From the NCBI GenBank assembly GCA_001793895.1, contig MGIT01000001.1, positions 106,508 through 170,507 on the forward strand: a stretch of 64,000 bases of DNA, read 5' to 3'. The translations under genes and the position numbers were made by a program. Below the pieces are notes generated by a model. It saw nothing but the letters and a program-made list of their open reading frames with translations. It did not search any database and was not told where the DNA came from. This DNA comes from Candidatus Wolfebacteria bacterium RIFOXYB1_FULL_54_12. Its GTDB lineage: Bacteria; Patescibacteriota; Minisyncoccia; UBA6257; UBA9933. The stretch's first letter is position 1; every line of letters begins with the position of its first letter. Shown one piece after another: positions 2,549-64,000 of this stretch.

Positions 2549-5014
2549 TTATTTTGCTTTCTTGGCAAGTGCCGCCTCCTTCTCCGCGATAGCCATCGTA
2601 GTTTTTACCACCGTGTCGGGATTAAGCGAAATGCTTTCAATACCCGCTTCTACGAGAAACTGGGCAAAGTCCGGGTAATCGCTTGGTGCCTGTCCGCAAA
2701 TGCCGATATATTTCTTGCGGGCGATACACTTAGCAATCACATCCTTGATGAGTGTGGTTACTGCTTCATCCTTTTCGTTGGTGATATATTTAATCTTTTC
2801 ATTGCCGTCACGATCGATACCCACTGTCAGCTGGGTCAGATCGTTCGATCCAATACTCATGCCATCAAACACATCAAGAAACTTATCTGCCAAGATGACA
2901 TTTGCCGGGATTTCGCACATGACATAGGTGCGAATGCCGGTCTTTTTGCCAAGGCCGTTCTTTTCCATAATGGCAAGATTCTTTTTGCCTTCCTCGACGG
3001 TACGGCAAAACGGGATCATGACATGCACATTGTCCAAGCCCATAGCCTCGCGCACCTTTTTGATTGCCTTCAGCTCAAGCACGAATGCATCGGCAAAATC
3101 CGGATGATAATACCGCGAAGCCCCGCGCCAGCCGATCATCGGGTTTTCCTCCTTCGGTTCATACAGCTCACCGCCGATCAACGTACGGTATTCATTCGTT
3201 TTAAAATCGGAGAAACGTACGATGACCTGCTTCGGATAAAATGCCGCGCCGATCTTCGCAATGCCATAAGCAAGCTTATCGATATAGAACTGCACCTTGT
3301 CGTCGTAACCGACGGTCTTTTTGTCGATCTCGCCGACGATCTTCTTGGCGACCTTGTCGCCTTTCTTTGCCTGCGCCTGCAATTTCTTGTAGTTCAGCAA
3401 TGCGTTCGGGTGGATGCCAATCGAAGATGCAATGATGAATTCTTCACGTGCCAAACCAACGCCGCCATTCGGAAGGAACGATTTTTCAAACGCCGTATCC
3501 GGAGTCGCAATGTTCATCGTAATCTTTGTCTTCGTCTGCGGGATCTTTTTTACGTCATGCTCGCGCACGCTAAACTTCTTTGCGCCATCATAGACATATC
3601 CTTCGGTCCCTGCCGTATCAACGGTGACCAGCTTGCCGGTCTTGAGCTTTTTAGTCGCGTCAAGGCTGCCGACAATACACGGAATGCCGAGCTCGCGCGA
3701 CACAATGGCCGCATGCGATGTGCGCCCGCCCTTGTCGGTCACGATCGCGGAAGCGATCTTCATGATAGGCTCCCAATCCGGATCGGTCATGTCGGTCACC
3801 AACACTTCGCCCTGCTTGAACTGGGTAATATTCTTTACATTCATGATCATATGCACCTTGCCAGTCGCGATCTTGCTGCCCACGGAAATGCCCGTGACGA
3901 TCGGAGTGACCTTTTCTTCGAGCACATATTCCTTGACCTTGGTGAGGTCGCGTTCCGCGTGGATGGTTTCCGGTCGCGCCTGCACGATGAACAATTCACC
4001 GGTCTTGCCGTCGCGCGCCCATTCCATATCCATCGGAGTCCAACGATTGTGTACCTTGGTGTAGTGATCTTCGATCAGCACACCCCACTTTGCCAACTGC
4101 AAAACTTCCTTGTCATTCAATACAAATGAATTGCGCTCCTTCGGGCTTGTTTTTACGATCTTGGTCGACTTGGCACCCACGGACGTCGAGGTCATATAAA
4201 CCATTTTCGCATCCTTCGGCGCAAGCTTCTTGTCGATCACCGGATCCATGCCTCCGTTTTTGCCCGCCATCATCTCCTTCAAGCGCGGCTTGAATACCAA
4301 AAACTCATCGGGGGTCACTTCGCCCTGCACGATCATTTCACCCAAGCCCCACACAGCGTTGACCACGACCACATCTTTGAAGCCGGATTCGGTATCGAGC
4401 GTGAACATGACACCCGAGCTGCCAATATCGGAACGGACCATTTTTTGAACGCCCACGGACAAGGCCACCTTAAAGTGGTCGAAGCCCTTGTCGACGCGGT
4501 AGCTGGTTGCACGATCGGTAAAAAGTGACGCCATGGCGGCGCGCACGGCAAAAGAAACATCCTTTGCTCCACGGATGTTCAAAAAGGTTTCGTGCTCGCC
4601 GGCAAACGAAGCACCCGGAAGATCTTCGGCGGTCGCCGAAGAACGAACGGCAACATCTACATTCTTGCCGTATTTCTTTTCCATTTCACGATAGGCGTCT
4701 TCGATCTGCTTGCGCATATCGGCCGGAAACTCGGCTTTTTTGATCGCCTCGCGAATGAACTTGCACTTTTTCTGCAGTTGCGGAATATTCTTCGAATTAA
4801 GGTCCTTTAATGTGTCCTTGATCAACTTCTTCAAACCGGTCTCTTCCAAAAAATCGCGATAGGCTGTTGCCGTTACGATAAAACCGCCCGGGATGTTTAC
4901 CCCCTGCGGAACCAAGTGTTGTAGCATTTCGCCAAGCGATGCGTTTTTACCTCCAACCTCGCCGACATCATTGATGCCGACTTTGTCCATTTTCAGTGTA
5001 TATGATTTCTGCAT
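2549..5014 (-). CDS. ppsA: Phosphoenolpyruvate synthase (pyruvate, water dikinase)
   Basis: Motifs seen: VGGKNASLGEM, the phosphohistidine swivel TDKGGRTSHAAIVSRELGIPCIVG, and GSNDLTQ in the PEP-utilizing domain. The start may be the second Met (MDKVG). Confidence 0.93.
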   Translation of the reverse strand: MQKSYTLKMDKVGINDVGEVGGKNASLGEMLQHLVPQGVNIPGGFIVTATAYRDFLEETGLKKLIKDTLKDLNSKNIPQLQKKCKFIREAIKKAEFPADMRKQIEDAYREMEKKYGKNVDVAVRSSATAEDLPGASFAGEHETFLNIRGAKDVSFAVRAAMASLFTDRATSYRVDKGFDHFKVALSVGVQKMVRSDIGSSGVMFTLDTESGFKDVVVVNAVWGLGEMIVQGEVTPDEFLVFKPRLKEMMAGKNGGMDPVIDKKLAPKDAKMVYMTSTSVGAKSTKIVKTSPKERNSFVLNDKEVLQLAKWGVLIEDHYTKVHNRWTPMDMEWARDGKTGELFIVQARPETIHAERDLTKVKEYVLEEKVTPIVTGISVGSKIATGKVHMIMNVKNITQFKQGEVLVTDMTDPDWEPIMKIASAIVTDKGGRTSHAAIVSRELGIPCIVGSLDATKKLKTGKLVTVDTAGTEGYVYDGAKKFSVREHDVKKIPQTKTKITMNIATPDTAFEKSFLPNGGVGLAREEFIIASSIGIHPNALLNYKKLQAQAKKGDKVAKKIVGEIDKKTVGYDDKVQFYIDKLAYGIAKIGAAFYPKQVIVRFSDFKTNEYRTLIGGELYEPKEENPMIGWRGASRYYHPDFADAFVLELKAIKKVREAMGLDNVHVMIPFCRTVEEGKKNLAIMEKNGLGKKTGIRTYVMCEIPANVILADKFLDVFDGMSIGSNDLTQLTVGIDRDGNEKIKYITNEKDEAVTTLIKDVIAKCIARKKYIGICGQAPSDYPDFAQFLVEAGIESISLNPDTVVKTTMAIAEKEAALAKKAK

Positions 5015-5142
5015 ACGATAGGATTCTTAAAATGTAATTTCTTATTGGTGTATGCGCCCAGTATACTACAATCAAAACCAAAAAAATACCCCAAATCATG
5101 GGATATTTTTGTCGAATTTGGCGATCATATTCAAGGCAACGG

Positions 5143-5436
5143 TCATTCCGCAGAATTTCCATCCAGTTGGCCAAAATGTTCTTTTGTGGCTCCGCAACTT
5201 GCGCATTCGGCCGGCGATTCGTCGGAAAGCTCCACGCGACCGCACGCATCGCACTCCCAACGCTTCTTATGGCGCGGTATGTGCTCCTCGGATACATATA
5301 CGCTTCCCAAAGGCTCAAACTCGAGCTTATTGAATTCCTCGCGCAAAGCGCCACAGTTCGGACATTCCGCAGGCGGCACCATGCCGTTATAGACATGACC
5401 GCATTTCTGACATTCCCATCGTGCAAGAGTTTCCAT
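5143..5436 (-). CDS. Tandem rubredoxin-like zinc-ribbon protein
   Basis: Two copies of a W-E-C-x2-C-G ... C-x-x-C-G pattern are present: WECQKCGH..CPNCGA and WECDACGR..CASCGA. Confidence 0.7.
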   Translation of the reverse strand: METLARWECQKCGHVYNGMVPPAECPNCGALREEFNKLEFEPLGSVYVSEEHIPRHKKRWECDACGRVELSDESPAECASCGATKEHFGQLDGNSAE

Positions 5437-5543
5437 GAAAAGATAAAATTATCGATTAATACAAAGTGCGCTGCGAATATCGCATCCGCACGCATATACA
5501 GTGTACACCACGCCACGAATATCGCGCAAACGTCCGCACACGA

Positions 5544-6095
5544 TCAGCGGATATGTTTTATGGTCGATGAACGAAACCGCGGCGGCTTGCCATAAATGGC
5601 GATGCCGCGATGCGTAATGTGCGGCCCCTTCGGCCCGTTGCCCACATCATGCCAACGCTCCAGAAATTCGGCAAAGGTAAGGTAGCCGCGATTCATAAGC
5701 GAAGGATCTTCAAAAATAAACTGTTCGTCATCATACCCGATGACCACGACATAATGCCCGTCATCGTAATCGCCCTTATAGTTTTGATGCCGATGCCCGG
5801 ACCATGCCTGAATATCCACGATGACGGGTACGCTCTTATCGATGTAACCCTTGATATCCGCAATGTTCATAGCGCGCATGTCCACGGAAAATCCTTCCGC
5901 CTTGGCAAAATCCGCTATCGCTTCCGGGTCCGTTCCGTCATGCGTGGTGTGCAGGCGCTTGATGAGCTGATCTTCACGAAATTCAATGCCGTAATAATAC
6001 AAAACCGACTGCATGGCGGAATCGCCACAGGTATAATCGGTCCCCTGCCGCACCTCAGGGAAATCAAGCAACCGCGTGTTGGAATGATTGGTCAT
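5544..6095 (-). CDS. Papain-like cysteine peptidase, C39-like (C39_2-type) family
   Basis: Candidate catalytic Cys in QGTDYTCGDSAMQSVLYYYG and candidate His in DDGHYVVVIGYD. Confidence 0.7.
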   Translation of the reverse strand: MTNHSNTRLLDFPEVRQGTDYTCGDSAMQSVLYYYGIEFREDQLIKRLHTTHDGTDPEAIADFAKAEGFSVDMRAMNIADIKGYIDKSVPVIVDIQAWSGHRHQNYKGDYDDGHYVVVIGYDDEQFIFEDPSLMNRGYLTFAEFLERWHDVGNGPKGPHITHRGIAIYGKPPRFRSSTIKHIR

Positions 6096-6126
6096 GATAT
6101 ATCAATACGCCACAAACAAAACGCCG

Positions 6127-6549
6127 TCAGTTAAAACCGTGCTGGTTGAAGAAAGGGGTAAATTTCTTATCCATGCCAAGAATATGCTCCTGCAACCATG
6201 TCCCCGAATACATCGCCATCTCTTCGGCAAGTTTTTGCACATCCACGTCCGGCTTTTGTATTTCATTCATAAAACGATTCGCGATCATGTCACGATACGC
6301 ATCATGCGCGGCGACATGTGTCGCAGTGTCCTCATAGTTGAATCCCCTGAAAAAACTTTCTTCGGTACTCAAATGATACAATGCATAATCTCCAAGTTCG
6401 CCGAACAAATTGGACAAAGCTTCCCGATCCGGGCTTTTCTCCCGGGAAATCGACGCCAGTTTATTTGCAATGGCAAAAAAATGTTGATGCTGTTCATCCA
6501 CCAACTGCACACCGACGCTGTACTCCGAAGTCCAAATAAATGTATCCAT
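6127..6549 (-). CDS. Bacteriohemerythrin-like metal-binding protein
   Basis: The N-terminus FIWTSEYSVGVQLVDEQHQHFF and spaced His/Glu ligands (HLSTEE, HVAAHD) fit the family. Confidence 0.8.
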   Translation of the reverse strand: MDTFIWTSEYSVGVQLVDEQHQHFFAIANKLASISREKSPDREALSNLFGELGDYALYHLSTEESFFRGFNYEDTATHVAAHDAYRDMIANRFMNEIQKPDVDVQKLAEEMAMYSGTWLQEHILGMDKKFTPFFNQHGFN

Positions 6550-6624
6550 AAAAAAATGGGTTAATTATTAAATATTCGCCTACACTTAAGAATAGCATAA
6601 GTAATCGGAATGCTCCACACAAAA

Positions 6625-6649
6625 CAAAAAACTCCTTTCGGAGTTTTTT
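6625..6649 (-). terminator. Rho-independent terminator after tRNA-His
   Basis: The structure is aaaaaactcc-tttc-ggagtttttt. Confidence 0.75.
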
Positions 6650-6659
6650 GCATAGTGGG

Positions 6660-6732
6660 GGTGCCCAGAGGGTATCGAACCCTCGACCTTCGGTACCACA
6701 AACCGACGTTCTACCACTGAACTATGGGCACC
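6660..6732 (-). tRNA. tRNA-His (GTG)
   Basis: Reverse complement: GGTGCCCATAGTTCAGTGGTAGAACGTCGGTTTGTGGTACCGAAGGTCGAGGGTTCGATACCCTCTGGGCACC. It has the extra G-1, the anticodon loop TTGTGGT and the T-arm GAGGGTTCGATACCCTC. Confidence 0.9.
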
Positions 6733-6834
6733 ATGTACAATGTGGTCATTATAATAACCCGTTTGTTCATAAAAAACAAGCAAGAAAAAGCCCGGCCAAT
6801 AAACAGCCGGGCGTGGGTACCACAGAAACGTCAG

Positions 6835-7473
6835 TCAGAAAAGTGCACGAAAGATCCGGTCGCGCATCTTCCTATCGTCAAGTGCGATGACTTCTTCATA
6901 CAGCGTTACCAGATCATAGACCAGCTTGGCCCGATCGGTATACAACCGAAGGTCTTCGATGCGCCCGGCAGATACCATGCATTGCCCGCTCGCGGTAAAC
7001 GATGCCCGTGCGGCACTTTTTACCATGGCCAAGGTTCCGCACTCGCCTTGCATGCACTCAAGTTCATGGACCTTGTACGGAAAGCACTCGGAATGAAAAT
7101 CGCTTGCCTGAAACGCACTTTGCCCCGGATCATGCCGGATGAACTTGAATGCCTTCCCGTTTCCGGTGTAAAGAAATTTGATGTTTCCCGCGGTATCGGC
7201 CGGCGAGCTGCTCAAAGCGCCGCCGGTAAACACCGTGATGGCGACGTTGGTCGCAATACACGCTTTACCCTGACGCTCGACCGTCATAACCGTGCGTATC
7301 ACATCCGTCCTGCTTGCCCACATGGATATGGGCGTGATCGCGGCACCATTACGCAACCGCTGTCCGATCGCACGGCGGGTAAGCATTTCGATACTGCTCA
7401 ATCGCTGGGGGCTGGGATTGCCCCGCGCAGTCGCGCGCAATATCCTGCACACTCCATCCAATAAACTCTGCAT
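6835..7473 (-). CDS. Hypothetical protein (212 aa from the internal Met)
   Basis: The start MQSLLDGV at 7473 is preceded by gagaggagga. No family was recognised. The gene is visibly GC-richer than its neighbours and has shadow ORFs on the opposite strand. Confidence 0.55.
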   Translation of the reverse strand: MQSLLDGVCRILRATARGNPSPQRLSSIEMLTRRAIGQRLRNGAAITPISMWASRTDVIRTVMTVERQGKACIATNVAITVFTGGALSSSPADTAGNIKFLYTGNGKAFKFIRHDPGQSAFQASDFHSECFPYKVHELECMQGECGTLAMVKSAARASFTASGQCMVSAGRIEDLRLYTDRAKLVYDLVTLYEEVIALDDRKMRDRIFRALF

Positions 7474-7586
7474 CGACGATTCCTCCTCTCTTTCGGATTC
7501 CGTGATACTGAATATGTAAACAGAACTGCACCTATTTAACCCCACAATTATGTAAAAGTCAATAATAATCGTTTTATAACAAAAAA

Positions 7587-7613
7587 AGGGTTCCCTCACA
7601 GAATCCTTTTTTG
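7587..7613 (-). terminator. Terminator downstream of the tRNA-like RNA
   Basis: The stem agggttc/gaatcct contains one G-T pair. The loop is cctcaca, with A and T runs on both sides. Confidence 0.65.
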
Positions 7614-7631
7614 TTTATTCAAATCCCTTTC

Positions 7632-7783
7632 GGTGCCGCGGGAGGGAGTTGCCTACAAGTCTCGCTTCGCCGCCGCTCAGCGAGCTCGCAGGCCGCCCCT
7701 CGCGATGTGCCCTGCTGGGCCGCATATCGCTGCGGTCTTAAACTCCCCACGCGGGCAAAGCAGTTTGCCCGCTCCACGGCACC
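7632..7783 (-). ncRNA. Candidate 152-nt structured, tRNA-Phe-derived tRNA-like RNA (identity unknown)
   Basis: The 3' end CAACTCCCTCCCGCGGCACC is identical to the tRNA-Phe 3' end. The 5' GGTGCCGTGG pairs with the 3' CCGCGGCACC over 10 bp. GGGAGTT pairs with AACTCCC. Internal hairpins are GGGCAAA-CTGC-TTTGCCC, CCGCA-GCGATA-TGCGG and CTCGCT...AGCGAG. Confidence 0.45.
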
Positions 7784-7790
7784 AACCAGA

Positions 7791-7826
7791 TAAAAATAAA
7801 AAACATACTCCTCACAAGTATGTCTT
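7791..7826 (-). terminator. Terminator after tRNA-Phe
   Basis: The stem is acatact/agtatgt with loop cctcaca, followed by a T-run on the minus strand. Confidence 0.7.
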
Positions 7827-7850
7827 TTATTTTATTCAAATCCCTTTCGG

Positions 7851-7922
7851 TGCCGCGGGAGGGAGTTGAACCCCCGACGCTTGCCTCTTCAGGGCAACGC
7901 TCTACCGCTGAGCTACCGCGGC
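7851..7922 (-). tRNA. tRNA-Phe (GAA)
   Basis: Reverse complement: GCCGCGGTAGCTCAGCGGTAGAGCGTTGCCCTGAAGAGGCAAGCGTCGGGGGTTCAACTCCCTCCCGCGGCA. The anticodon arm is TTGCC-CTGAAGA-GGCAA. Confidence 0.9.
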
Positions 7923-7990
7923 TTATACACCTATTCAAGATGTGCAATCATTATACATGGTTGGAATTTTTTTTCAATCCCAATCCCCTG

Positions 7991-8022
7991 TTATTGGTTA
8001 TAGGTTATTAGTTATTGGTTAT
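7991..8022. repeat. GGTTAT-type low-complexity repeat
   Basis: The sequence ttattggttataggttattagttattggttat lies between tRNA-Phe and tRNA-Pro. Confidence 0.8.
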
Positions 8023-8027
8023 CTTAG

Positions 8028-8098
8028 TCGGAGAGCCGGGAATCGAACCCGGACCATATGCTCCCAAAGCATACATACTACCACTATACTACTCTCCG
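8028..8098 (-). tRNA. tRNA-Pro (TGG)
   Basis: Reverse complement: CGGAGAGTAGTATAGTGGTAGTATGTATGCTTTGGGAGCATATGGTCCGGGTTCGATTCCCGGCTCTCCGA. The anticodon arm is TATGC-TTTGGGA-GCATA. Confidence 0.88.
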
Positions 8099-8168
8099 TT
8101 TGACAACTGTTGCAGTTTGTCGCTTTCTTAGTATACTGAAATAGTCACAAAAGTAAATGCATTTGCAC

Positions 8169-8240
8169 GCCCCTGTAGTTCAATGGATAGAACAGGAGAC
8201 TTCTAATCTCCCAATATAGGTCCGATTCCTATCGGGGGCA
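8169..8240 (+). tRNA. tRNA-Arg (TCT)
   Basis: Sequence: GCCCCTGTAGTTCAATGGATAGAACAGGAGACTTCTAATCTCCCAATATAGGTCCGATTCCTATCGGGGGCA. The anticodon arm is GGAGA-CTTCTAA-TCTCC. Confidence 0.88.
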
Positions 8241-8254
8241 CAAACCAAACACAC

Positions 8255-21889: not shown

Positions 21890-21934
21890 AAAACAAAGAC
21901 CACGCATTTTAATGCATGGTTTTTGTTTTTGTGG
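21890..21934. repeat. 45-bp direct repeat, right copy; also the terminator hairpin after tRNA-Ala
   Basis: The sequence aaaacaaagaccacgcattttaatgcatggtttttgtttttgtgg overlaps the last 3 nt of tRNA-Ala. Confidence 0.85.
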
Positions 21935-22002
21935 ACCTAGGCGGAATCGGACCGCCGTCTCAGCAATGCGAATGCCGTGTTCTACCACTAGACTATAGGC
22001 CC
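21932..22002 (-). tRNA. tRNA-Ala (CGC)
   Basis: Reverse complement: GGGCCTATAGTCTAGTGGTAGAACACGGCATTCGCATTGCTGAGACGGCGGTCCGATTCCGCCTAGGTCCA. The G3:U70 identity pair is present, and the anticodon loop is TTCGCAT. Confidence 0.88.
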
Positions 22003-52323: not shown

Positions 52324-52426
52324 GCCCACACCCTCCTCTTTCTATGGATATATATGTAAAATAAGAGCTAACTCAAACTAACACCTGCGTTGCGCACTGT
52401 CAAACGATATTTAAAAAAATATTTTG

Positions 52427-52497
52427 AGCGGGTAAAGGGAATCGAACCCTCGCTTCAACCTTGGGAAGGTTGCGCACTACCACTATGCAATACCCGC
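52427..52497 (-). tRNA. tRNA-Gly (CCC)
   Basis: Reverse complement: GCGGGTATTGCATAGTGGTAGTGCGCAACCTTCCCAAGGTTGAAGCGAGGGTTCGATTCCCTTTACCCGCT. The anticodon arm is CAACC-TTCCCAA-GGTTG. Confidence 0.88.
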
Positions 52498-60114: not shown

Positions 60115-61170
60115 ATGGAACATACGGATAGCTTTGTATCGGTCGTCAGAAAGGCACTACCCGCCACGGTAACGATCGTCGTATCGAAAAAATTTGGTGA
60201 AATAGAAAAAGAGGCAACGGAACAGTACCCGGATATCCCGTTGTGGCTCAAGCGACGCGAGCTCGGATTTTTGAAGCAGCAAACGGATAAGCGCGGCATG
60301 TTGAAGGTCGGGAATGGATCGGGGTTCATCATCGATCCGTCGGGAATCGTGGTCAGTAATCGGCACATCGTAAGCGATGTGAAAAACGCCTACACCGTCA
60401 TCACCAATGACGGACAAAAATATCAGGCAAAAATACTTGCACGCGACCCGTTGAGTGATATCGCCATCTTGAAGATCGACAATGGGGCTACATTCCCCTT
60501 TCTCTCCTTGGGCGACTCGGCACACCTTGAGCTGGGCGAACCCGTCATAACCGTAGGCAATGCGCTTGGCATGTTCCAAAACACCGTTTCCAAAGGAATC
60601 ATTTCCGGCCTCTCCCGGGCGATCACTGCGCAAATAGACGCACGTTCCCCCATTCAAGAGATCCACGGACTCATTCAAACCGATGCGGCGATCAACCCGG
60701 GTAACTCGGGAGGTCCGCTGATAAACAGCGCCGGAAAGGTCATCGGCATCAACGTAGCCATCATACAAGGCGCGCAAAACATCGGTTTTGCATTACCGAT
60801 CAACACGCTCAAAAGGGATCTTATCGATCTACAGCACTATGGCCGCATTCGCCAACCGTTTCTCGGAGTGCACTACGTTACGGTCACGGAAAACATGCAA
60901 GATAAATTAAAACTCCCCGCCGATCATGGCGCGCTTGTAGTAAGTCCGAGCCCCTACATGAAGAGCGTCATCGATAAAAGCCCCGCGGCCATTGCCGGAC
61001 TCAAAGAACACGACCTAATCGTAGAGTGCAATAAGGAGCTGATCAGCGGCGAAAAACCACTCGGCGAGCTGCTCGAGAAATACGAGGTGGGAGACACCAT
61101 TCATCTCACGGTATTGCGCAAAAACCGCACGCTTTCCCTGTCCGCAAAATTGACGGAGAAAAATGGCTGA
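60115..61170 (+). CDS. HtrA/DegP-family serine protease with a PDZ domain
   Basis: The catalytic triad context is NRHIV, DIAILK and NPGNSGGPL. A C-terminal PDZ domain is present. Confidence 0.9.
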   Translation: MEHTDSFVSVVRKALPATVTIVVSKKFGEIEKEATEQYPDIPLWLKRRELGFLKQQTDKRGMLKVGNGSGFIIDPSGIVVSNRHIVSDVKNAYTVITNDGQKYQAKILARDPLSDIAILKIDNGATFPFLSLGDSAHLELGEPVITVGNALGMFQNTVSKGIISGLSRAITAQIDARSPIQEIHGLIQTDAAINPGNSGGPLINSAGKVIGINVAIIQGAQNIGFALPINTLKRDLIDLQHYGRIRQPFLGVHYVTVTENMQDKLKLPADHGALVVSPSPYMKSVIDKSPAAIAGLKEHDLIVECNKELISGEKPLGELLEKYEVGDTIHLTVLRKNRTLSLSAKLTEKNG

Positions 61171-61216: not shown

Positions 61217-61339
61217 TCATTCAAACAATCCCCGCACCACAGGGACGACGCCCGCAAGCTCGGCGAAATGCCGGACAACATACAGCGCGACACCCGCAAT
61301 GATGATCCACGCGATGATCGTACCAAGATATTTCGTCAT
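61217..61339 (-). CDS. Possible 40-aa single-TM peptide overlapping the leuS stop (ATGA)
   Basis: Own translation gives MTKYLGTIIAWIIIAGVALYVVRHFAELAGVVPVVRGLFE. It is below the ORF-track size cut-off. Confidence 0.35.
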   Translation of the reverse strand: MTKYLGTIIAWIIIAGVALYVVRHFAELAGVVPVVRGLFE

Positions 61340-64000
61340 GACTCAATAACAAGATTAATGAGACGGTCGGGCACAAAAATGACCTTTTTGATTTGCATGC
61401 CGGGAGCGGCATCGAACACCTTTTTCGAAGCAAGCGCAAGTTCACGCGCACGCTCCTGCGTGATTCCCTTCGATACGCGCACGGTATCGCGCGTCTTTCC
61501 GTTGATCTGCACTACCAATTCAAATTCGTCTTCAGCCACCAGCCGGGTATTGTATTTAGGCCATGCCGCAATGTGAACGGACGTCTTTTTTCCCAGCACG
61601 CTCCGATATAGCTCTTCGGAAAAATGCGGGGCAAAAGGGGCAAGCATGATCAGAAATTGCTCCAGCGTTTCGGCATCGATCGCATCGCGTCGGTCTTCCA
61701 TGGCGTTGAGCAGTATCATCAACGCACTGACTGCCGTATTAAACCGAAACTCGCCGACATCTTCCCCTACCTTTTTAATGGTCTGATGCAATATCTTTTT
61801 CAATGAGGCACTCGCAGCAACCTGCCTTGCGGAAGATGCGTGCTTCCTATGCGCGTCAAACAGCCGCTCGACGCGTTGCAAAAACCGGGCAATGCCGACC
61901 ATTCCTCCGGGTTGCCATGGCCCGCCCTGATCATACGGCCCCATAAAACACAGGTACATGCGCACGGCATCGGCACCAAACGTATCCACCAGATCATCAG
62001 GATCGATGACATTGCCTTTCGACTTGGACATTTTCTGTCCATCGGGACCGAGAATCGTGCCTTGGTGCCGCAGCGCAGTAAACGGCTCTTTAAACTTAAA
62101 AAGCTTAAGGTCATGCAATACCTTGGTAAAGAAACGTGCGTAGAGCAAATGCATTACGGAATGCTCGGCTCCGCCGACATACATATCGGCCGGCAACCAC
62201 GCCGCAAGCTTCTTTTCATCGGCAAACCGCTTCGCATTATGCGGGTCGGGATAGCGCAGATAATACCACGACGAACACATGAACGTGTCCATGGTATCGG
62301 TCTCGCGCGCACCCTTTCCTTTGCATCGCGGGCAGGGAGCATTCACGAATGCTTTCGAATGCGCCAAGGGTGATTTTCCTTCTTCGGTCGGCAAATAGTT
62401 TTTTACCGTCGGCAACAACACCGGAAGCGCTTTTTCGGTAACACCGATCCAGCCGGGGTTTGCGAGTTCGCCTTTGGTAAACTCGCCCTTTTTATATTCA
62501 CCTGATTCGATGCGCGCCTTGCAATGTGCGCAAAATACAAGCGGAATGGGAGAGCCCCAATAGCGCTGGCGCGATATGAGCCAATCACGGAGCTTATAAT
62601 TTACCTTCCCCGTTCCGCGCCGCTCATGCTCAAGCCACGCCGTCATATGCGTGCGGGCCGCGGCCGAATCCATGCCGGTAAACGATTCGGAATCGACAAG
62701 TACGCCGTCTTCGGCCATGCACCCGTCGGCTGGCGCGGCATCTTTTGCGACAACAGAGGTCTTGATAGGCAGCTTGAACTGCTTCGCAAATGCAAGATCA
62801 CGCTCGTCATGCGCGGGAACGGCCATAACGGCACCCGTACCATAGCCACCCAAAACATAGTCGGCAACAAATACCGGCACGCGCTCGCCCGTAAATGGAT
62901 TGATCGCCTTGATCCCTTGCAACTCGACGCCGGTCTTTTTCTTTTCTTCGATCATGCGCTCGCGCTCCAACTTTTTACGCGCCTTTGCGACATATGCGGA
63001 AACCTCCTTGCCATTCGTTATTTGTTTTTGCAATGCGCCGATAAGCCGGTGTTCGGGAGCGACCACAACGTACGTACAGCCAAAAATGGTATCCACACGC
63101 GTAGTGAACACGTCGATGGAATCATCGACGACCGCCATATGATACATCCACATATCGGTATCATCGGCAACCTTCCTGTCGTAGTACCTGGAATATGTAT
63201 CATAGAACTCCTTTCGACTTTTAAATTTCTCGTGCCCTTCATGCGTTTCGGACACCTGTTTCATCGTTGTCTTTACCACCTTGGTGATGCGCGCCAACGC
63301 AAAGCGTTCTTTGCTTGCGTGGTTGACGAGCTGCACGATATCACCGACTTTTACCTTTTTCGGCTCAAGCCGATACGTGATGTTTTTTTCACCGGACAAC
63401 ACTAATGGAATAAGATGCGGCATGAACTTGAATGTTTCCTTGGAAATAGCCGCGTCAATCCCGTCGATCATGAACTTGACTGTCGTACCTTCGGATTTGC
63501 CGATCCAATTGCGCTGCATGGCCTTGGTCTTTTCCGGCCAATCAAGTCCGTCCAGATCCTGCAATAAACGCTCCGCATAATCGGTGATCTTCAAAAGCCA
63601 CTGGTCGATGTCGCGTTGAACGACCTCCGCTCCGCACCGGTCGCACTTGCCGTCGATGACCTGTTCATTTGCAAGAACGGTCCGATCCTTCGGACACCAG
63701 TTCGCTTTCGCCTTTGTGCGGTACGCAAGTCCTGCATGGAACAACTGCAGAAACATCCATTGCGTCCATTTGTAATATTCCGGGTCGGCGGTAATGACAC
63801 GCCGATCCCAATCGTACATCGTGCCCATGTTCTCCAGCTGGGCCGTCATGGTCTTGATATTCTTGTACGTCCACGTCTTCGGATGAATGCCTCGTTTGAT
63901 GGCCGCATTTTCTGCGGGCAGACCAAACGCATCAAACCCGATTGGAGAGAGTACATTGAAACCGCTCATGCGCTTGAACCGCGTAAAAACATCCGCAGGA
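61336..64000 (-). CDS. leuS: Leucine--tRNA ligase (5' end beyond the window) with an ASCH-like insertion
   Basis: It contains FDAFGLPAEN, VFTTRVDTIFG and KMSKSKGN. The frame stays open upstream of the Met at 63969 (..ADVFTRFKRMSGFNVL). Confidence 0.93.
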   Translation of the reverse strand, partial: PADVFTRFKRMSGFNVLSPIGFDAFGLPAENAAIKRGIHPKTWTYKNIKTMTAQLENMGTMYDWDRRVITADPEYYKWTQWMFLQLFHAGLAYRTKAKANWCPKDRTVLANEQVIDGKCDRCGAEVVQRDIDQWLLKITDYAERLLQDLDGLDWPEKTKAMQRNWIGKSEGTTVKFMIDGIDAAISKETFKFMPHLIPLVLSGEKNITYRLEPKKVKVGDIVQLVNHASKERFALARITKVVKTTMKQVSETHEGHEKFKSRKEFYDTYSRYYDRKVADDTDMWMYHMAVVDDSIDVFTTRVDTIFGCTYVVVAPEHRLIGALQKQITNGKEVSAYVAKARKKLERERMIEEKKKTGVELQGIKAINPFTGERVPVFVADYVLGGYGTGAVMAVPAHDERDLAFAKQFKLPIKTSVVAKDAAPADGCMAEDGVLVDSESFTGMDSAAARTHMTAWLEHERRGTGKVNYKLRDWLISRQRYWGSPIPLVFCAHCKARIESGEYKKGEFTKGELANPGWIGVTEKALPVLLPTVKNYLPTEEGKSPLAHSKAFVNAPCPRCKGKGARETDTMDTFMCSSWYYLRYPDPHNAKRFADEKKLAAWLPADMYVGGAEHSVMHLLYARFFTKVLHDLKLFKFKEPFTALRHQGTILGPDGQKMSKSKGNVIDPDDLVDTFGADAVRMYLCFMGPYDQGGPWQPGGMVGIARFLQRVERLFDAHRKHASSARQVAASASLKKILHQTIKKVGEDVGEFRFNTAVSALMILLNAMEDRRDAIDAETLEQFLIMLAPFAPHFSEELYRSVLGKKTSVHIAAWPKYNTRLVAEDEFELVVQINGKTRDTVRVSKGITQERARELALASKKVFDAAPGMQIKKVIFVPDRLINLVIES

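Follow-up and report, generated by a model that had tools for sequence, protein, structure and literature searches.

A predicted ASCH domain inserted in the CP1 editing domain of a Wolfebacteria leucyl-tRNA synthetase

Introduction

Why would a leucyl-tRNA synthetase (LeuRS) carry, inside its CP1 editing domain, a second small domain that resembles a free-standing hydrolase? The question is raised by leuS, a gene at the end of a 64,000-nucleotide stretch of DNA (hereafter the window) from Candidatus Wolfebacteria bacterium RIFOXYB1_FULL_54_12. Wolfebacteria belong to the Parcubacteria/Patescibacteria group, which is also known as the candidate phyla radiation. On the minus strand, the leuS frame is open from its stop at 61336 to base 64000; the window end cuts off the first 53 codons, and the HIGH motif with them. 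The product is 100% identical to P0005, a 941-aa protein of the same organism whose database annotation is merely 'hypothetical protein'. An initial annotation of the window had placed an insert at residues 171-283 of the visible open reading frame (ORF), after the GKSEG strand and ahead of VFTTR, where CP1 starts. The coordinates (63459-63121) proved exact, the quoted peptide strings are present, and the alignment with the T. thermophilus (Tth) enzyme breaks at Tth 242/243. By profile, predicted fold, and octapeptide, the insert is a complete ASCH domain.

The host synthetase and the site of insertion

The host has the Pfam domains tRNA-synt_1, tRNA-synt_1_2 (the LeuRS editing domain), and Anticodon_1. 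The HIGH motif (in P0005, outside the window) and the KMSKS motif are both present, and a 422-aa segment is colinear with the T. thermophilus and E. coli LeuRS (E 3e-102). The residues of the post-transfer editing site are kept, both in the threonine-rich motif TTRVDT (63088-63105) and in GTGAVMAVPAHDERD (the AHDERD Asp region), and the modelled CP1 domain superposes on solved editing domains at 2.0-2.6 Å. Judged by its sequence, the host is a class Ia bacterial-type LeuRS that appears otherwise intact apart from the insert.

In a phmmer comparison with the T. thermophilus LeuRS (1h3n/2v0c), the match covers Tth residues 127-242, is interrupted by ~110 unmatched residues, and continues again from Tth 243. 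The insert enters at the turn of the first CP1 β-hairpin, where the T. thermophilus enzyme reads AEILFPVEGKEVR/IPVFTTRPDT (the slash marks the point of insertion), and the insert ends about 4-5 residues ahead of the TTRxDT editing motif. The LeuRS editing-domain profile (PF13603, 185 positions) is split accordingly, with the post-insert part beginning at position 19. A comparison with P0015, an orthologue without the insert, locates the exact indel at ~63128-63454, which comprises 327 nt, or 109 codons, in frame (DNA alignment with the ASCH-negative locus L034). At the indel junctions, a match of at most 2 nt is seen by eye, no formal repeat search having been made. The element called the 'CP1 hairpin' in the literature (PMC4138327) is a different one, the ZN1-bearing neck, and has no bearing on the insertion site.

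The insert is uncommon among bacterial LeuRS, as the initial annotation had held. Among the solved LeuRS, 26 distinct sequences were matched, and none has a comparable insert. Among 103 related LeuRS in which both motifs were located, the spacer between NWIG(K/R)SEG and VFTTRxDT is shorter than 40 aa in 85, 40-59 aa long in two, and 123-173 aa long in the remaining 16, which are the insert carriers. This survey and the alignment with the solved enzymes rule out an insertion common to LeuRS in general. An assembly chimera is ruled out by the recurrence of the insert in many independent assemblies and species: the same protein occurs on 8-9 contigs from independent assemblies, and many related species carry the insert as well. 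An intein or mobile element is likewise ruled out by the end-to-end alignment of the segment with an ordinary enzyme family.

Fold and family of the insert

The Pfam ASCH profile is matched with 45.1 bits (curated cut-off, 21.2; E 1.8e-11) over positions 5-102 of 103, and the segment scores 49.9 bits when it is excised and searched alone. Free-standing ASCH proteins of 107-110 aa, which are 39-51% identical to the insert, can be aligned with it from the first to the last residue. The ASCH octapeptide is defined as GxKxx(E/T)xR (bioRxiv 10.64898/2026.02.27.708502), and GEKNITYR occupies this place in the insert. The AlphaFold2 model of the insert, built on 20 sequences, has a predicted local distance difference test score (pLDDT) of 94.8 and a predicted template modelling score (pTM) of 0.86. 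The best matches of this model in the PDB, as found with Foldseek, are E. coli YqfB (9kyf/9kyh, crystal structures from 2025), with template modelling (TM) scores of 0.73-0.81 and a root-mean-square deviation of 2.2 Å over 104 columns. The top 24 PDB matches all belong to the ASCH family, including YqfB, L. crispatus ASCH, EF3133, ZmASCH, PH0355, TTHA0113, and EOLA1. The ASCH/YqfB-type PUA fold suggested by the initial annotation is thus borne out by a Pfam score above the cut-off, by a confident model, and by YqfB as the closest solved structure.

A two-domain AlphaFold2 model of CP1 and ASCH together has a pLDDT of 86.4 and a pTM of 0.79, with values of ~86-94 at the junctions, and its CP1 part fits solved editing domains at 2.0 Å with 46% identity. 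In this model, host strand 12-21 leads through a short helical turn into the first ASCH strand (28-35), and the last ASCH strand (125-134) is followed, after two residues, by host strand 137-142. The first and last ASCH strands are accordingly predicted to continue both strands of the host hairpin. In P0021, a distant insert-bearing LeuRS, an extra low-complexity charged linker of ~48 aa (residues ~235-290) lies between the host hairpin strand and ASCH, and P0020 has a shorter linker of the same kind; because of these extra linkers, the N-side junction appears to tolerate length variation.

Catalytic residues

The catalytic residues of YqfB have been defined by mutagenesis. Lys21 acts as the base, Thr24 as the nucleophile, and Arg26 in the oxyanion hole, and each of the three Ala mutants is inactive, while Thr24Ser is still active; Glu74 is the acid, and Glu74Ala lowers the activity 100- to 1000-fold (PMC6972931). 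His70 and Tyr89 contribute less, with only a ~10-fold loss in His70Ala (PMC6972931). YqfB accepts diverse N4-acyl groups and acts on the free nucleoside, its proposed primary substrate, with a kcat/Km of up to 2.8e6 M−1 s−1 (PMC6972931).

The motifs that the initial annotation had picked out (GEKNITYR and GHE) map onto these experimentally defined residues: YqfB Lys21, Thr24, and Arg26 have their counterparts in Lys195, Thr198, and Arg200 of the visible ORF. Across the 16 LeuRS inserts, the Lys is kept in all, the Thr in 13 with Ser in the other three, and the Arg in 14. The catalytic Glu is found in 16/16 inserts and does not vary among the 20 sequences of alignment A1, and the YY pair (A1 positions 92/93) aligned to YqfB Tyr89 is kept in 15-16 of the 16. 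Since Asp27 and His70, which are 100% conserved in the YqfB branch, are not conserved across the inserts, the insert is classed on sequence grounds as a GKTR-type relative of YqfB that lies outside the narrow YqfB branch. The conserved residues speak for a catalytic rather than a purely RNA-binding domain, and the insert is apparently active.

Distribution, history, and selection

Insert carriers are found in a Wolfebacteria LeuRS clade, whose members are 75-100% identical to the window protein, and in scattered, distant Patescibacteria LeuRS (50-62% identical), including one from a Howlettbacteria genome. The insertion site is identical in all carriers. The insert is found only in a patchy set of Patescibacteria LeuRS, mainly from Wolfebacteria. 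Host LeuRS were found through a whole-LeuRS search, a genome scan, and a search of representatives. LeuRS made up at least 4 of 33 related loci in the scan of species-representative genomes, and at least two LeuRS fragments are among the top 150 representatives in a search of 1.84 billion proteins. An insert-only or profile search of a set of 5.8 billion proteins returned only free-standing ASCH proteins and not even the host of the insert itself, and such a search is unsuited to counting hosts.

In a neighbour-joining tree with bootstrap, LeuRS with and without the insert interleave inside the Wolfebacteria clade. P0011, which has the insert, and P0016, which lacks it, are sisters with 99% bootstrap, and the monophyly of insert-bearing LeuRS receives 0% support; the remaining nodes are weakly supported. 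The insert-less P0015 has 832 aa (941 − 109), is 85% identical to the window protein outside the insert, and is thus as close to it as the insert-bearing relatives are. Its locus is syntenic, leuS lying between upstream pilus genes and a downstream HtrA-like protease, and the linker residues on both sides of the insertion are kept (GIE/DSAIE vs GID[...]DSID). Because the divergence of the insert follows that of the host, and because carriers interleave with non-carriers, the simplest history is an old acquisition followed by vertical descent and repeated precise loss. The occurrence of close orthologues without exactly these 109 codons indicates that the insert is dispensable for leucylation. 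Between the window and L001, the ratio of nonsynonymous to synonymous substitution rates (dN/dS) is 0.12 in the insert and 0.06 in the rest of leuS, and the insert is under purifying selection where it is present.

Adaptations of the embedded copies

The LeuRS inserts differ in charge from their free-standing relatives. The isoelectric point (pI) is 8.5-9.6 in 16/16 inserts, compared to a median of 6.1 in 71 free-standing relatives, only 30% of which have a pI >8.5 (Mann-Whitney p 1.7e-5, shared ancestry uncorrected). Nine alignment positions have turned to Lys or Arg in the inserts; among them, positions 78, 80, 82, and 83 directly follow the catalytic Glu77 and are mostly acidic or neutral in the free-standing proteins. 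Furthermore, conserved lysines of the free-standing proteins are replaced on both strands that join the insert to CP1. At one column, Trp is invariant in the 16 inserts, and Lys is found in 61 of the 71 free-standing relatives. This residue, Trp274, is a candidate for a packing contact with CP1 and hence for a new interface. With the basic shift near Glu77 and the Lys-to-Trp change on the joining strands, the insert bears the signs of having been built into its host and adapted there, and not merely tolerated.

Free-standing relatives and other cargo of CP1

The free-standing family is large: 988 representatives match at E≤1e-3, and 1069 clusters do so at E≤1e-10. The genomes that were retrieved are mostly those of Patescibacteria and DPANN archaea, with some metagenome-assembled genomes of Clostridia. 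Among 71 of these relatives, each of the K, T, and R columns is kept in 70 and the E column in 54; one relative is labelled 'YqfB (UPF0267 family)' by JGI. In Falkowbacteria (L018, L020, and L021, ~3570-7330), the neighbours of the free-standing gene are two NUDIX hydrolases, an HD/YfbR-like 5′-deoxynucleotidase, and a nucleoside 2-deoxyribosyltransferase-like protein. A HIT protein and a second ASCH are the neighbours in Moranbacteria, and RNase HII and a dCTP deaminase-like protein those in a nanoarchaeon. Beside those of Falkowbacteria, the house-cleaning loci are L012 (3455-4804) and L024 (3329-4864). In a search of representatives, fusions were also found in the same ASCH subfamily (P0146, P0174, P0144, P0187, and P0134), namely NUDIX-ASCH (P0146), NYN RNase-ASCH, ASCH-AAA_33/zeta-toxin-like kinase, ASCH-methyltransferase, and ASCH-peptidase S51. 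No leuS gene adjoins the free-standing ASCH genes in the 29 loci checked for a fusion precursor. A class-I synthetase gene with a weak LeuRS match (E ~1e-9) lies ~3 kb downstream of free-standing ASCH in two Falkowbacteria loci (L020, 7345-8316; L021, 7327-8316), where it stands at the end of the house-cleaning cluster.

The CP1 domain of other Patescibacteria LeuRS carries other enzymes at a second site. A NUDIX hydrolase is present in at least eight clusters (for example, P0023, aa 380-496, and P0051, aa 433-528), and the NUDIX box of P0023 looks intact by sequence; P0037 contains an aminoglycoside-2''-adenylyltransferase-like nucleotidyltransferase at aa 380-470. The site corresponds to PF13603 position ~146-148 of 185, for which the window equivalent is ~62640-62700, between LPIKTSV and EDGVLVDS. 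None of the listed proteins has ASCH and NUDIX together. With the NUDIX and nucleotidyltransferase domains at this second site, the CP1 domain of Patescibacteria is a repeated host of small nucleotide-directed enzymes.

Possible functions

Tentatively, we regard the insert as an N4-acyl, probably N4-acetyl, cytidine deacylase that would use LeuRS as its tRNA-binding platform. The ASCH domain would strip cytidines of their acyl group in a tRNA that is held on, or passes over, the editing domain, and the RNA backbone would be contacted by the basic surface acquired next to the catalytic Glu. The design logic would be that of archaeal ASCH proteins that gained a helix-turn-helix (HTH) for tRNA binding. 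Three points support a tRNA substrate: the surface around the active site has become basic, the host domain is the one that takes up the tRNA 3′ end, and a preprint on ASCH proteins offers a precedent. In that preprint, archaeal ASCH-HTH proteins are reported as erasers of N4-acetylcytidine (ac4C) in tRNA, for which the appended HTH confers strong tRNA binding, and all 19 tested ASCH proteins lowered tRNA ac4C (bioRxiv 10.64898/2026.02.27.708502).

Several points weigh against this tRNA-directed deacylase. As far as we are aware, ac4C is not known to occur in bacterial tRNA-Leu. The repeated loss of the insert indicates an accessory role. The oxyanion-hole Arg is replaced in two of the 16 inserts, by Cys in P0012 and by His in P0107; the position of YqfB Asp27 is Leu in the insert and unconserved among inserts; and that of YqfB His70 is His in the window protein and Gln in most other inserts. 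The nucleotide house-cleaning and salvage neighbourhoods of the free-standing relatives favour a nucleoside substrate, as does the efficiency of YqfB on the free nucleoside. Moreover, the evidence for tRNA erasers comes from an unreviewed preprint and largely from overexpression (bioRxiv 10.64898/2026.02.27.708502).

The alternative that survives best, which we consider possible but on the unlikely side, is a passenger salvage enzyme, an amidohydrolase of N4-acetylcytidine or N4-acylcytosine (free nucleoside or base) that sits in a permissive LeuRS loop and is uncoupled from tRNA. Such an enzyme would serve pyrimidine salvage or house-cleaning in a nucleotide-scavenging organism, with an abundant essential protein as its host. 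The high efficiency of YqfB on the free nucleoside would be expected of it, and so would the abundance of free-standing relatives in Patescibacteria and DPANN archaea, their neighbours (NUDIX, HD/YfbR-like nucleotidase, HIT, dCTP deaminase-like protein, and RNase HII), and the ASCH-NUDIX fusion P0146. The NUDIX and nucleotidyltransferase domains in the second CP1 loop imply that CP1 loops tolerate enzyme cargo, the length of the hairpin is naturally variable (10-57 aa), and the insert has been lost repeatedly, all of which suits a passenger. However, a passenger leaves unexplained the uniform basic shift in pI and the basic changes beside the catalytic Glu, both seen against free-standing proteins of similar organisms, as well as the constant host and the single site across LeuRS that are only 52-60% identical. 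The free-standing copies are, in addition, never found beside leuS, so that an operon precursor for a fusion of convenience is missing.

A broader proposal, which we regard as unlikely, is that CP1 in Patescibacteria is a docking platform for enzymes that service tRNA. The ASCH domain would then strip an N4-acyl group from tRNA cytidines or an N-acyl block from the aminoacylated 3′ end, and the NUDIX and nucleotidyltransferase inserts would be analogous repair modules.

It is distinctly doubtful that the insert is a non-catalytic RNA-binding or reader module, which would have been recruited as PUA domains have been in tRNA-modifying enzymes and would provide an extra contact to the tRNA (acceptor stem, CCA cytidines, or a modified cytidine) and tune tRNA(Leu) binding, 3′-end shuttling, or editing. 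Its basic surface, its position adjoining the editing pocket where the tRNA 3′ end docks, and the retention of two inserts despite the lost oxyanion-hole Arg are compatible with binding, but K, T/S, E, and Y are kept 16/16 across inserts that are only 32-60% identical, which is unexpected for a pure binder. Close orthologues also work without the insert at otherwise equal length (941 vs 832 aa), so that no missing tRNA-binding element is compensated.

We consider it very improbable that the insert is a repair or antidote enzyme for another acylated tRNA 3′ end, such as N-acetyl-leucyl-tRNA produced by GNAT-type toxins or N4-acylated C74/C75, with the editing pocket positioning the 3′ end. It is true that only a few residues separate the insert from the editing motif, to which the aminoacylated A76 binds, that YqfB takes diverse N4-acyl groups, and that ASCH genes are found alongside those of GNAT acetyltransferases in predicted toxin-antitoxin operons (PMC7641849); however, the YqfB-type enzymes known so far act specifically on the cytosine ring, and neither the window nor the flanks showed a GNAT toxin. 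A neutral or decaying insertion without current function is scarcely credible, as the patchy distribution, the repeated clean loss, and an evolutionary rate ~2x that of the rest of the protein are outweighed by the dN/dS of 0.12, the conserved catalytic residues, the very confident model, and retention in LeuRS lineages that are only 52-60% identical.

Comparison with known systems

The insert resembles YqfB in fold, in size (~103-110 aa), in the octapeptide GxKxxTxR, and in the equivalents of Lys21, Thr24, Arg26, Glu74, and Tyr89. The two are only ~19% identical, and YqfB, for which a further structure, 1TE7, has been solved beside 9KYF/9KYH in the GKTR subgroup, is a free-standing acidic monomer with a pI of 4.7, whereas the insert has a pI of 9.5 and resides inside a 941-aa synthetase. 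YqfB served as the non-nucleic-acid-binding protein in the ASCH preprint (bioRxiv 10.64898/2026.02.27.708502). Free-standing ASCH proteins of 107-112 aa (P0001-P0004 and hundreds more) are the closest sequence relatives and have the same catalytic columns. They are, however, encoded by separate genes and mostly acidic to neutral, with Lys at the Trp of the insert and acidic residues at positions that are Lys or Arg in the inserts. The archaeal ASCH-HTH proteins (Afu3ASCH and Pku4ASCH) similarly combine a GKTR ASCH domain with a separate tRNA-binding module (bioRxiv 10.64898/2026.02.27.708502). Their partner is a small C-terminal HTH in archaea, compared to a whole synthetase with an internal ASCH domain in Patescibacteria.

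The canonical LeuRS CP1 domains (T. thermophilus 1H3N/2BYT and E. coli 4AQ7/4ARC) are colinear with the host and share the TTRVDT motif and the AHDERD Asp region, but they have no domain at the 242/243 hairpin tip, where the hairpin measures 10-30 residues. The Patescibacteria LeuRS with NUDIX or nucleotidyltransferase inserts have the same host enzyme, CP1 domain, organism group, and kind of small nucleotide-directed cargo, whereas the PF13603 site (~146-148 vs ~18-19), the fold, and the chemistry are different. PUA domains appended to TruB/Cbf5 and to archaeosine tRNA-guanine transglycosylase also place a PUA-like barrel on a tRNA-handling enzyme, as terminal, non-catalytic RNA anchors; the LeuRS insert differs from them in being internal and in keeping the active-site residues of a hydrolase. 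A superfamily relation between PUA and ASCH has been described (PMC7641849).

Novelty and implications

No paper on an ASCH domain inside LeuRS was found in the 7.7 million papers of PMC or in bioRxiv, a search that does not cover the founding ASCH paper, which is older than these genomes; nor was one found there on NUDIX or nucleotidyltransferase inserts in LeuRS, or on a link of ac4C writers to Patescibacteria. The combination of ASCH and LeuRS is already visible in precomputed Pfam annotations. Both parts belong to known families, and the architecture is, as far as found, rare and undescribed.

The substrate of ASCH/YqfB proteins is under debate, as they are considered either tRNA ac4C erasers (bioRxiv 10.64898/2026.02.27.708502) or salvage enzymes (2026 EOLA1 preprint). 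A natural, selected fusion to a tRNA-handling editing domain is the kind of evidence able to settle this, and the pair of an insert-bearing enzyme and a natural precise deletion provides a clean natural experiment. If the tRNA-deacylase reading is true, tRNA charging could be physically coupled to the removal of a tRNA base modification. Under the broader and less likely docking-platform proposal, the synthetase would proofread the state of acylation of its tRNA in addition to the amino acid. An RNA-modification eraser would then, for the first time, be known in natural fusion with an aminoacyl-tRNA synthetase, and there would be direct evolutionary evidence that ASCH acts on tRNA in vivo. Together with the NUDIX and nucleotidyltransferase inserts, the insert suggests that, in bacteria with reduced genomes, an essential protein is used to house accessory enzymes for nucleotides or RNA. 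For LeuRS engineering, it is useful that the hairpin tip (Tth 242/243) tolerates a folded domain of ~110 residues in nature. The interest is tempered by the rarity and dispensability of the insert, although an apparently active eraser-type enzyme inside an editing domain would surprise specialists in synthetases or RNA modification.

Features of the locus and neighbouring genes

Table 1. Positions of leuS, the insert, and their parts in the window.
Feature	Position	Strand	Basis or remark
leuS, bacterial-type leucyl-tRNA synthetase	61336..64000	minus	ORF list and translation, Pfam; cut by window end
Inserted segment, short linkers and complete ASCH domain (predicted)	63121..63459	minus	Visible-ORF aa 171-283
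Pfam ASCH PF04266 match	63127..63420	minus	Visible-ORF aa 184-281
ASCH octapeptide GEKNITYR (GKTR type)	63370..63393	minus	phmmer and MAFFT; codons checked by eye
GHE motif, Glu247 of visible ORF = YqfB Glu74	63229..63237	minus	phmmer and MAFFT alignments
Trp274 of visible ORF, last ASCH strand	63148..63150	minus	Column comparison
Host hairpin N-side strand TTVKFMIDG, = Tth LeuRS ~230-238	63460..63486	minus	phmmer alignment; strand 12-21 in AlphaFold2 model
Host hairpin C-side strand and editing motif, SIDVFTTRVDT, = Tth 243-252	63088..63120	minus	phmmer alignment; strand 137-142 in AlphaFold2 model

A second ASCH copy is absent from the window and from the regions flanking the ASCH-negative orthologue. 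Type IV pilus genes lie upstream of leuS, past the end of the window (L035/L036, 1-9800), encoding PilB/T2SSE, PilT, PilC/T2SSF, a prepilin peptidase, and several N_methyl pilins, and an HtrA-like protease follows leuS at window 60115-61170; the same order of pilus genes, leuS, and protease is found in the ASCH-negative L034. Directly after leuS, a 40-aa hydrophobic ORF (MTKYLGTIIAWIIIAGVALYVV...) occupies window 61217-61339 on the minus strand, and its start codon overlaps the leuS stop (ATGA). A counterpart with 43% identity is found at the same position in L034 (5496-5645). The ORF probably encodes a small membrane protein that is translationally coupled to leuS. No tRNA-Leu gene lies within the 64-kb window, which contains a cluster of four tRNA genes at 6656-8241 (His-GTG, Phe-GAA, Pro-TGG, and Arg-TCT) and lone tRNA genes for Ala-CGC (21931-22002) and Gly-CCC (52426-52497).

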